From positions 1 to 64,000 of IMG/VR virus record IMGVR_UViG_2859895461_000003: 64,000 nt of DNA; one strand, 5' to 3'. The position numbers and the translations under genes are program-made. Of this stretch, positions 51,401-53,222 are shown in pieces. Origin of the DNA: a virus. Taxonomy: Duplodnaviria; Caudoviricetes. Below the pieces are notes generated by a model. The model saw only the letters and a program-made list of their open reading frames with translations, ran no database searches and was not told where the DNA came from. Position 1 is the stretch's first letter. Every line of letters begins with the position of its first letter.

Positions 51401-53044
51401 ATGGTGGATAAATTTGAACAAGAAGTAAAACAAATATTCAGTAAGTTTGATCTTAAGCCATTCTTGTTTGTTGGGGCAGGATTATCTATAAGATACTATA
51501 AATTACCTGATTGGAAACGTTTATTAATGGACATAACTGAGAAATATATAGATGTAGGTAACAATTTTGCTTTTGCTAGTGTACAAGAAGAAGCTGAAAA
51601 TGAGATTAGTGATAGAATAAATAAAATTCAAAATTTTGAAGAACATTCACATGGTTATTTTATGAAAGGTGATGAAAAGAAGTTTAATACATATCCTATT
51701 ATAGCATCTAAGCTATGCAGGAAGTTTAACCAAAAATTTTATAGTTCGGGAGGAAAATTTCCTTTTGAATTAAAACAACATGAGGTGTTATCTCTAAAAC
51801 GACATGAGATTTCTCCATTTAAACTTTTAGTGGCCAAATATTTAGAAAGTATTAAATTTAAAACGAATGAATATTTTGATGAAATTAGAAATTTTAAGGA
51901 AATGGAACAACATTTGGCAGGAATTATTACTACTAATTATGATGATTTTTTAGAATCACATTTACAATTTCCAGTATATATAGGACAGAATGATTTATTT
52001 AATGTTAATACTACATATAAATTAGGAGAAATTTATAAAATTCATGGCTGTTTAAGTCAGCCAAATTCAATTATATTAAATGAAGAGGATTATACAAATA
52101 TATATGAGAGATATCAATATCTTTCTGCTAAACTGTTAACATTTTTTATTGAGCATCCGATCATATTTATTGGATATAGTATTTCTGATAAAAATATTAA
52201 AGATATATTAGTGGATATTAACAAATGTTTAAATAGCCAAACTAAAGAGAAAATAGCAAATAGATTAATATTTATTGAAAGAACAGATGATGTAAATAAG
52301 CAAGCGATAATACCATTTCAAGAACAAGCAAGTGGATTAATGTTTCATAAGATTGTATTAAAAGATTTTAATATATTGTATAAAGCTATATTAGAGGTTA
52401 ATGATAGTATTCCGACAAGAATAGTAAGACTTGTACAGGATAAAATAGCAACTCTTGTTAAGACAACAGACAGTACTAAGAAAGTATATTATGGTAGTGA
52501 ATTAGAAAATCCTAATGTTTCAGATGATAAATTAGTAGTATTTATCGGAACTAAAGACAAGCTCTCTACGTTTGGATATGCAGGAATGAGAATACAAGAT
52601 ATACATAAAGATGTTGTATTTAATAATATTGGATTTAAAGGAGAAGAATTATTTGAACTTTCACTACCAATAATGCCATATATTGAACGTTCCAAGATAC
52701 CTTTATGGAAGTATATGAAAGATTGTGGCTACAAAGAAGAGTATGCTAGACATATAATAAAAAAACCTAGTGAAGTAATAACAAGAAATTTAATATCCCA
52801 AAAATATGTCCGTTTAGTAAAAGAATGTTTAAACATTAATGATATAATAAAATTACAATTACAAAAAAATGTTGAAATTGCTGCTGTTTTATATAAAGTA
52901 GAAAGTTTTGAGATTGATGAAATAGAAATGTATTTAAAAAATAATTTTAAATCTCAAATTGATAATAAGAATAATAAGACTAATTTTAGAAAATTAATTA
53001 CTGCTTATGATTGTTTAAAATACAATATAAAAGCTGCCAAGTAG
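51401..53044 (+). CDS. SIR2-domain protein (putative anti-phage NADase)
   Basis: FVGAGLS, IITTNYD, YKIHG, IFIGYS motifs. Confidence 0.88.
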   Translation: MVDKFEQEVKQIFSKFDLKPFLFVGAGLSIRYYKLPDWKRLLMDITEKYIDVGNNFAFASVQEEAENEISDRINKIQNFEEHSHGYFMKGDEKKFNTYPIIASKLCRKFNQKFYSSGGKFPFELKQHEVLSLKRHEISPFKLLVAKYLESIKFKTNEYFDEIRNFKEMEQHLAGIITTNYDDFLESHLQFPVYIGQNDLFNVNTTYKLGEIYKIHGCLSQPNSIILNEEDYTNIYERYQYLSAKLLTFFIEHPIIFIGYSISDKNIKDILVDINKCLNSQTKEKIANRLIFIERTDDVNKQAIIPFQEQASGLMFHKIVLKDFNILYKAILEVNDSIPTRIVRLVQDKIATLVKTTDSTKKVYYGSELENPNVSDDKLVVFIGTKDKLSTFGYAGMRIQDIHKDVVFNNIGFKGEELFELSLPIMPYIERSKIPLWKYMKDCGYKEEYARHIIKKPSEVITRNLISQKYVRLVKECLNINDIIKLQLQKNVEIAAVLYKVESFEIDEIEMYLKNNFKSQIDNKNNKTNFRKLITAYDCLKYNIKAAK

Positions 53045-53142
53045 AAATGTGCCTTCATAGAAGGGGCATTTCTAGAATAAAAGGTATCCCTCTAAGGGAG
53101 CCTTTTATCAACTTAGCAGCTTGTAATATTATATGTGATCAT
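53021..53142 (-). ncRNA. Putative ~120-nt three-way-junction RNA convergent with the SIR2 gene
   Basis: Minus-strand TTGAAA(53177-53172)-17-TATAAT(53154-53149); closing stem plus two inner hairpins; G-U pairs form only on the minus strand. Confidence 0.65.
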
Positions 53143-53164
53143 ATTAACATTATACATTTATATT

Positions 53165-53222
53165 TAATTTATTTCAATACTAATTTAAATCAACATATTT
53201 AAATTAGTATTGAAATAAATTA
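53165..53222. repeat. Perfect 26-bp inverted repeat, 6-nt spacer
   Basis: TAATTTATTTCAATACTAATTTAAAT-caacat-ATTTAAATTAGTATTGAAATAAATTA. Confidence 0.9.

Follow-up and report, generated by a model that had tools for sequence, protein, structure and literature searches.

Predicted convergent structured RNAs overlapping the stop codon of PDC-S25-type SIR2 genes: computational analysis of a Clostridium-type prophage locus and its relatives

The known SIR2 defence effectors are controlled by proteins, by nucleotides or, in the case of pAgo, by variable guide RNAs. What controls a SIR2 protein encoded by a stand-alone gene is the question raised by a locus in the virus record IMGVR_UViG_2859895461_000003 of IMG/VR (Duplodnaviria; Caudoviricetes), of which positions 1 to 64,000 constitute the window analysed here (64,000 nucleotides, 28% G+C). 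A preliminary description of this DNA, made from its letters and open reading frames (ORFs), had paired the SIR2 gene with a structured RNA transcribed from the opposite strand, and had proposed an antitoxin or sensor role for it. The analysis presented here shows, by computation, that a strongly structured RNA with a promoter of its own faces PDC-S25-type SIR2 genes in many lineages, its terminator overlapping their stop codon, an arrangement that is widespread and appears undescribed. The elements of the window concerned are the following, all of those on the minus strand being predictions:

51401-53044, plus strand: SIR2_2 / PDC-S25 ORF, 547 amino acids (aa)
53172-53177, minus strand: -35 hexamer TTGAAA of the RNA promoter, unchanged in the close relative L087 (see below)
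53149-53154, minus strand: -10 hexamer TATAAT, after a 17-nt spacer, unchanged in L087
53015-53142, minus strand: predicted non-coding RNA (ncRNA) of about 125-130 nt, with both ends predicted
53126-53134, minus strand: 5' arm of the outer A/U stem, pairing with 53020-53028
53111-53122, minus strand: 5' arm of the closing stem of the three-way junction, pairing with 53031-53042
53076-53109, minus strand: hairpin A, with a 9-bp lower stem, a 1x2 internal loop, a 5-bp apex and the loop UAG
53042-53074, minus strand: hairpin B, with a 7-8-bp lower stem and a 2x2 internal loop
Within hairpin B, minus strand: apex of 5 bp (CCUUC/GAAGG) with the loop UAU, containing the 8-mer CCUUCUAU
53015-53030, minus strand: U-rich, terminator-like tail 3' of the closing stem, lying in the last SIR2 codons

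The SIR2 gene and the RNA predicted at its end

The protein encoded at 51401-53044 is matched in Pfam by SIR2_2 alone (PF13289; 85.7 bits against a gathering cut-off of 24.5, residues 175-296), and in PADLOC by PDC-S25 (PDLC04968; E 1.6e-128, residues 5-542 on profile positions 10-515 of 517), ThsA and LmuA. In 34 homologues, no variation is seen in TTNYD (177-181) or H215-G216, motifs that we take to provide the catalytic Asn/Asp and His. The predicted structure (pLDDT 82.5) displays in residues ~1-340 a SIR2 domain of the defence NADase type, with Z values of 16.2 for ThsA and KomC and of 15.0 for Avs5; a resemblance to DSR2 was also detected by Foldseek (1.8e-10), together with sequence matches to KomC, ThsA and DSR2. 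The helical C-terminal domain, folded alone, gave no recognised fold upon structure comparison, its best match (Z 4.7) being to helical repeats. Scoring of 8000 candidates yielded 2291 relatives at E <= 0.001, only one of them close (89% identity) and the others at 36% identity at most, and a single-protein locus search of the genome contig collection found none.

The minus-strand promoter of the preliminary description (TTGAAA-17-TATAAT) is present at 53177-53149. With 11 of 12 consensus positions, it shares first rank among the 28 promoter-like sites of 51000-54500; nonetheless, such sites occur in that region at chance density (28 seen, 27.2 +/- 4.7 expected), and therefore a single promoter site is no evidence by itself. 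Transcription from it would start about 7 nt past the -10 hexamer and end inside the U-rich tail, a probable terminator; on the plus strand no comparable T run follows the stem. The RNA is predicted to fold as a three-way junction, whose closing and outer stems were recovered where they had been drawn, enclosing the two similar hairpins already described, each of them with a 5-bp apical stem of G/C type, a 3-nt loop and an internal loop. The minus-strand fold of 53020-53134 has a minimum free energy (MFE) of -47.5 kcal/mol (z -7.63), a stability reached by 0 of 200 shuffles. Overlap with the end of the SIR2 ORF, earlier put at about 24 nt, amounts to 24 nt (53021-53044).

The cassette that holds gene and RNA is shared with one close relative, the viral-collection contig L087:

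51393-53190: cassette shared with L087, 1798 nt at 95.66% identity, both flanks different

The L087 protein is identical to the SIR2 of the window at 524 of 547 residues. Upstream of the SIR2 start codon, L087 is unrelated to the window and includes a Panacea-domain gene, and downstream its identity breaks after 53190, to resume over 53424-55499 at just 86.6%. A contig of sequencing run X1 covers 51401-53190 and carries 282 other letters in place of 53191-53440; because of their same boundaries and same upstream letters, L087 and X1 were counted as one relative. Since the cassette is shared while both of its flanks are different, the exchange involved SIR2, RNA and RNA promoter together, as a single unit. 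Window and L087 differ at eight of the 134 nt of the RNA, five of them unpaired and three paired. All three paired changes keep the pairing of the minus strand (G-C to G-U, A-U to G-U and U-G to U-A): the two in the closing stem produce G-U pairs on the minus strand and A-C mismatches on the plus strand, the U-G to U-A change lies in the outer stem, and hairpin A is without substitution. This pattern, with a chance of ~0.01 by rough arithmetic, favours the minus-strand fold, in a suggestive rather than conclusive manner.

No Rfam 15 family matched the window at gathering score, and at E <= 10 over 52700-53600 just five chance-level rows appeared (E 0.22-6.2), far below gathering scores; the Rfam check proposed beforehand is in this way in line with an undescribed RNA. 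ARAGORN detected no transfer RNA (tRNA) or transfer-messenger RNA (tmRNA) at the element, no second copy of it occurs within the window, Tandem Repeats Finder reported no array over 53012-53145, and the exact 26-mer of hairpin A is absent from the genome contig collection.

Two further features of these letters were considered and set aside. A 17-codon hydrophobic ORF, MKAHFYLAAFILYFKQS, lies in the RNA (53005-53058, minus strand), antisense to the SIR2 C-terminus. It was rejected as a gene on the grounds that it has no ribosome-binding site, that its start codon falls in a hairpin apex, and that L087 shows two amino-acid changes in it and no silent change. A pattern search with the closing stem in the viral contig collection retrieved five related contigs, L002-L006 (e.g., L003, 2001-2114), that have its 13-nt inverted repeat (CAAGCTGCTAAGT ... 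ACTTAGCAGCTTG) around a 90-nt spacer of unrelated sequence, with a T run behind; this was judged a coincidence or another element.

The RNA partner across the SIR2 family

Linkage to the 3' flanks of homologues, named in the preliminary description as a test, was evaluated in three collections (genome, viral and metagenome) at the 80 top-ranking loci of each, 160 nt around the stop codon being folded on both strands. For the genome and viral set, gene ends were set by tblastn; 35 loci with matches short of residue 500 and two with short flanks were dropped and duplicates were removed, leaving 108 unique flanks. Their antisense strand is more stable by a median of 13.9 kcal/mol, the difference being at least 10 kcal/mol in 70 of the 108 and at least 15 kcal/mol in 48, and only one flank shows the reverse by at least 10 kcal/mol. 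Among control stretches, the threshold of 10 kcal/mol was reached by 4/108 within the ORF, by 5/105 lying 400 nt downstream and by 15/103 lying upstream. The metagenome set, once 11 incomplete, two short and 12 duplicate loci had been dropped, provided 55 new flanks that replicate this behaviour, 34 of them differing by at least 10 kcal/mol, versus 4/55 and 5/47 in controls. A strand energy gap this large reflects many G-U pairs, and is therefore a signature of an RNA made from the antisense strand. A signature of this kind is what 70 of the 108 flanks display, and the expected linkage holds.

Ten Firmicutes flanks were then aligned as the seed of a covariance model, R2, with two hairpins and 39 pairs, 14 of them already carrying compensatory changes in the seed. 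At E <= 0.01 the model matched 35/80 genome loci (ten of them the seeds), 20/80 viral loci (ten near-identical) and 33/80 metagenome loci, every match lying on the antisense strand and abutting the end of the SIR2 match. According to record titles, these class-1 RNAs occur in Desulfuromonadales, Nitrospirae, Pseudomonadota, Mollicutes, Veillonella, Clostridia and Bacillales. Across 44 matches, 94.2% of the cells are paired, versus 41-49% when the 3' partner is slid by one to three columns; 37 of the 39 pairs change on both sides, as counted in an alignment fitted to the model, and 0 of 500 shuffles reach any observed measure. Covariation on homologue 3' flanks, a further test set beforehand, is consequently present in the R2 class, outside which the window RNA stands. 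Near-invariant in R2 are three G-U/G-C/U-G (or C-G) motifs, UUUA loops and an asymmetric internal loop. The matches overlap the SIR2 ORF by 4-38 nt (median 12), and a promoter with at least 10 of 12 consensus positions lies within 70 nt upstream of 34/44 of them, compared with 0/43 and 0/44 at control places. Rfam searches retrieved just one tRNA, placed elsewhere, at 20 homologue loci, and gave 0 matches at five loci at E <= 0.1. As judged from these comparisons, R2 is a new RNA family, absent from Rfam.

Completeness of the association was explored from both sides. RNA-first searches covered three samples of 151 genomes each, with matches counted beyond the three centre genomes. When whole genomes were searched, exactly one R2 match was found in each of the carriers G001-G003, at the SIR2 locus. 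The matches in G147 and G348 adjoin a full SIR2 gene, that of G348 being the same place as locus L042. In G129 (L171, G129:C14, ~1358-1625) a class-1 RNA (E 2e-7) stands beside the last ~50 SIR2 codons only and is, to judge from this remnant, an orphan RNA after effector loss. The single copy of the RNA at SIR2 loci, together with the joint movement of the window cassette, upholds the SIR2-ncRNA pairing proposed at the outset. In the protein-first direction, 9/151 genomes of the same family sample carry the SIR2 protein and two of the nine carry an R2 RNA beside it. In six of the nine, the antisense hairpins are different ones; they come with U tails and promoter-like hexamers and, by inspection, fall into two further sequence types. 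Strand asymmetry is small in these six non-R2 carriers, and reversed in L253. The partner RNA may hence exist in several classes without being universal.

Clustering of the flanks retrieved no conserved second protein around SIR2 in the first-pass locus set, some gene ends of which were wrong. In that set, the commonest flank genes are HTH regulators, integrases (27 loci), type I restriction-modification genes (14) and ImmA-like peptidases. Plus-strand terminators, called with a crude custom finder, were located within 40 nt of the SIR2 stop codon at 3/107 loci, and none within 600 nt at 57/107.

The RNA of the window differs in fold from the other classes and agrees with them in position, orientation, possession of its own promoter, and a long terminal stem with a U tail behind it in the stop region; a pair of similar hairpins, each with an internal loop, is likewise shared. 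Its nearest relatives by protein, L172 and L173 (34-35% identity), have the promoter TTGACA-17-GATAAT and an RNA in the form of a long terminator hairpin, with the 8-mer CCUUCUAU of the window's hairpin B in the inner apex; at these loci, like in the window, both strands fold about equally well. By analogy of position and design, we interpret the junction RNA of the window as another, divergent class of these SIR2 partners.

A number of results pull against this picture and have to be set beside it. In the first place, the plus strand of the window element folds equally well (-46.7 kcal/mol, z -7.10). The preliminary description held that mismatches resolve as G-U pairs on the minus strand only, which stands for the closing and outer stems (53038/53115 and 53023/53131) and fails for the internal loops of the hairpins, where U-G pairs are possible on the plus strand. 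Because both strands fold equally well and such plus-strand pairs are possible, the sequence of the window alone cannot fix the strand; the minus strand was assigned considering (i) the promoter, (ii) the U-rich tail found on the minus strand only, (iii) the L087 substitutions, and (iv) the family-wide pattern. Promoter, ends and strand of the window RNA are, in consequence, predictions. Secondly, the window RNA has no R2 match at E <= 1, and a model built on it together with L087 (R1) finds nothing in 245 other homologue loci, nor in 150 scored genomes of the family of G004, a search without positive control; direct comparative support for the window-type RNA is therefore one relative, that is, n = 2 sequences. 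Within the family, about one third of the flanks show little asymmetry (38/108 above -10 kcal/mol), one of the nine carriers (L260) shows no hairpin, and the R2 covariation counts come from the model-fitted alignment mentioned above. In addition, G410 holds a weak R2 match (35.9 bits) with no SIR2 homology within 1.5 kb, a copy (L262, G410:C1, 1501-1609) whose first hairpin is intact and whose second is degenerate, with deletions. On the protein side, structure comparison of the C-terminal domain gave no RNA-binding fold (best Z 4.7), the net charge of that domain does not stand out (median -2, window +7), and PDC-S25 is itself a candidate defence gene only. With all these points taken into account, we consider it very probable that the RNA is a real, SIR2-dedicated partner.

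Possible roles of the RNA

For the function of this partner, the chances that it is a negative gate, or antitoxin, for the NADase appear to us evenly balanced. The RNA would be transcribed constitutively from its strong promoter. It might pair with the 3' end of the SIR2 messenger RNA (mRNA), leading to decay or to interference, whether by duplex formation or head-on, or it might be bound by the SIR2 protein, probably through the C-terminal domain. A phage that shuts off host transcription or degrades RNA would cause the loss of the partner, upon which SIR2 would be made or released, and the freed SIR2 would destroy NAD+ and the infection would abort. A plus-strand terminator ahead of the RNA gene is missing from most SIR2 loci, so that the 3' end of the mRNA should be complementary to the RNA. 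The conserved unpaired nucleotides and the three G-U/G-C/U-G motifs suggest a specific binder, most simply SIR2 itself, as the sole conserved partner at the locus. Within the antitoxin reading, protein binding is for us somewhat more likely than antisense action alone. An antidote role fits with the strong RNA promoter and with the orphan RNA that stands beside the SIR2 remnant of G129. Nonetheless, and as a further point on the opposite side, the results obtained here do not separate an antitoxin from an activator.

An activator is what the first alternative envisages, with the RNA as positive cofactor or sensor: SIR2 and RNA would form a ribonucleoprotein whose NADase is switched on when a phage factor binds, cuts or modifies the RNA or, alternatively, the RNA would scaffold the filament assembly known from other defence SIR2 proteins. 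All the evidence for the SIR2-RNA pairing applies equally to such a cofactor, the conserved loop and bulge nucleotides and the thrice-repeated G-U/G-C/U-G motif resemble recognition sites, and the nearest structures (ThsA, KomC and Avs5) are, by their entry titles, ligand-triggered filament formers. Even so, an RNA acting in trans would not need the strict convergent, stop-overlapping layout that all R2 matches share, and the retention of the RNA without SIR2 in G129 agrees better with an antidote. We regard a cofactor role as unlikely.

A purely cis-antisense RNA of type I style, pairing with the 3' end of the mRNA or interfering head-on, and structured for stability or termination, would account well for that same layout: the convergent overlap (4-38 nt) is conserved, strong promoters lie upstream of the RNA and, plus-strand terminators within 40 nt being as rare as 3/107, the mRNA should carry the RNA's complement. 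What complementarity does not need is the conservation of unpaired nucleotides, the repeated wobble motifs, or 37 covarying pairs out of 39, so that an antisense action and nothing else seems rather improbable. Finally, it is very improbable that the window structure is no RNA gene at all and is instead a bidirectional terminator or insulator after a 'moron' gene, or a DNA site for attachment, packaging or single-strand replication origin, as its equal folding on both strands, its position at a mobile-element junction with an adjoining A/T palindrome, and the chance density of promoter-like hexamers in A+T-rich DNA might suggest, considering that the element travels with SIR2 and with neither flank, that the right arm of the palindrome is absent from L087, that the plus strand has no U tract after the stem, that the same convergent RNA accompanies homologues outside phages, for instance those in type I restriction-modification islands, and that the L087 substitutions favour the minus-strand fold.

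Genomic setting and place among known systems

The SIR2 cassette lies at the end of a prophage of Clostridium type, with replication and structural genes, that spans ~1100 to 51400 of the window, and is followed by other mobile DNA. The genes that mark this setting are:

1113-2714, minus strand: large serine recombinase gene, meeting a truncated T2SSE-type ATPase gene
48519-49541: C5 methylase, prophage gene
Near the lysin: holin-size ORFs of the prophage
50145-51167: GH25 lysin, prophage gene
53467-53676: HTH gene downstream of SIR2

At the left border, a T2SSE/MshEN-type ATPase ORF (223-1176) ends after ~150 of 370 profile positions, at the 3' end of the recombinase gene. This gene seems to have served as the integration site of the prophage, and its missing half was not found within the window. 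At the other border, the 209-nt intergenic stretch that follows the lysin (51192-51399) is 89% identical to Clostridium tetani phage phiCT453A, in which the equivalent stretch stands before two cargo genes and attR, the cargo being different from that of the window. The stretch resembles the conserved leader of a 'moron slot' and has an internal inverted match inside it. Beyond 100 nt upstream that match phiCT453A, phage and plasmid collections yielded just four weak matches to SIR2. In L087, positions 284-1300 contain the gene with the Panacea domain (SocA-like antitoxin) and, after it, an ORF of 165 aa without family; these two are possibly another toxin-antitoxin cargo pair.

On the downstream side, a perfect 25-bp A/T-rich palindrome occupies 53166-53221, with the -35 hexamer of the RNA promoter included in its left arm. 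Homology to L087 and to the X1 contig stops at its centre (53190); the right arm is absent from L087 and the palindrome is not conserved there, and from these letters it looks like a recombination scar or junction. An exact 14-nt direct repeat, CATTTCTAGAATAA, is found at 53067-53080, in the RNA junction, and at 53434-53447, just 5' of the HTH gene; it is probably due to chance, since neither copy is intact in L087. A conjugative-type element (54387-63451) adjoins the prophage. Besides small membrane ORFs, it has an ATPase of 792 aa that resembles TraD/VirD4 by weak matches, a 1254-aa protein carrying an HTH of excisionase type and, at 58497-59690, a tyrosine-recombinase-like ORF; its first 2 kb are 86.6% identical in L087.

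Among known systems, the PADLOC entry PDC-S25 covers the full length of the protein, but it is modelled as a single protein gene, with no RNA component in the library searched. In type III toxin-antitoxin systems (ToxIN, AbiQ/antiQ, CptIN and TenpIN), a cis-encoded, abundant and structured RNA restrains a protein toxin, and these systems act in abortive-infection defence and are often found on mobile elements. Their RNA is a tandem array upstream of the toxin gene and in the same orientation, cut by the endoribonuclease toxin. On the contrary, the window RNA is downstream and convergent and has no tandem repeat, and its SIR2 partner is an NADase-type protein, not an endoribonuclease of ToxN/AbiQ type. 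The type I pairs txpA/RatA and bsrG/SR4 of Bacillus prophages are convergent and overlap at their 3' ends, with a separate promoter for the RNA. The SIR2/RNA pair of the window resembles them in being convergent, in the RNA's own promoter and in its prophage location, and by gene layout it would overlap at the 3' ends as well (24 nt within the ORF); however, type I toxins are small membrane peptides whereas the window ORF is a predicted 547-aa enzyme, and RNAs of the R2 class conserve structure and motifs beyond complementarity. Retrons and DRT systems combine a structured ncRNA with a reverse transcriptase and an effector. They share with the present locus a structured ncRNA genetically tied to a defence effector, but no reverse transcriptase is found beside the SIR2 gene of the window, nor among the conserved flank clusters. 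The layout of PDC-S25 SIR2 plus RNA fits neither the type I nor the type III definition, and would belong with RNA-controlled toxin or defence modules.

Regarding SIR2 proteins, ThsA (Thoeris), DSR2, KomC (Kongming), Avs5, SIR2-HerA and SIR2-APAZ/pAgo share the NADase-type SIR2 fold with the window protein, whose C-terminal domain matches that of none of these defence effectors (best Z 4.7). To our knowledge, none of the known SIR2 defence effectors has a fixed, dedicated, structured RNA gene. Full-text literature, taken outside subscription journals and supplements, yielded no description of a SIR2 gene with a dedicated RNA. In passages of two 2026 reviews (PMC13434031, PMC13064643), control of SIR2 effectors is listed as being by protein, nucleotide or guide RNA only.

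In its most complete form, and only tentatively, since in our view this larger picture is somewhat less probable than not to hold as a whole, PDC-S25 would be a two-part ribonucleoprotein immune module, present in Firmicutes, Desulfuromonadales, Nitrospirae, Mollicutes and further lineages named in record titles. Its dedicated RNA, in several classes co-diversifying with the protein, would be bound to the C-terminal domain and would keep the NADase inactive until lost upon infection. An RNA antitoxin acting on an NAD+-depleting effector would, if this is true, be without precedent. The R2 model adds an RNA family with strong covariation, as measured in the model-fitted alignment. Protein-only defence catalogues can miss an RNA component, and a PDC-S25 gene cloned without ~200 nt of its 3' flank would be an incomplete system under test. 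SIR2 NADases being among the commonest anti-phage effectors, a conserved, separately promoted RNA at the 3' end of one large family of them would offer a concrete and testable answer to how the stand-alone forms are silenced and triggered.

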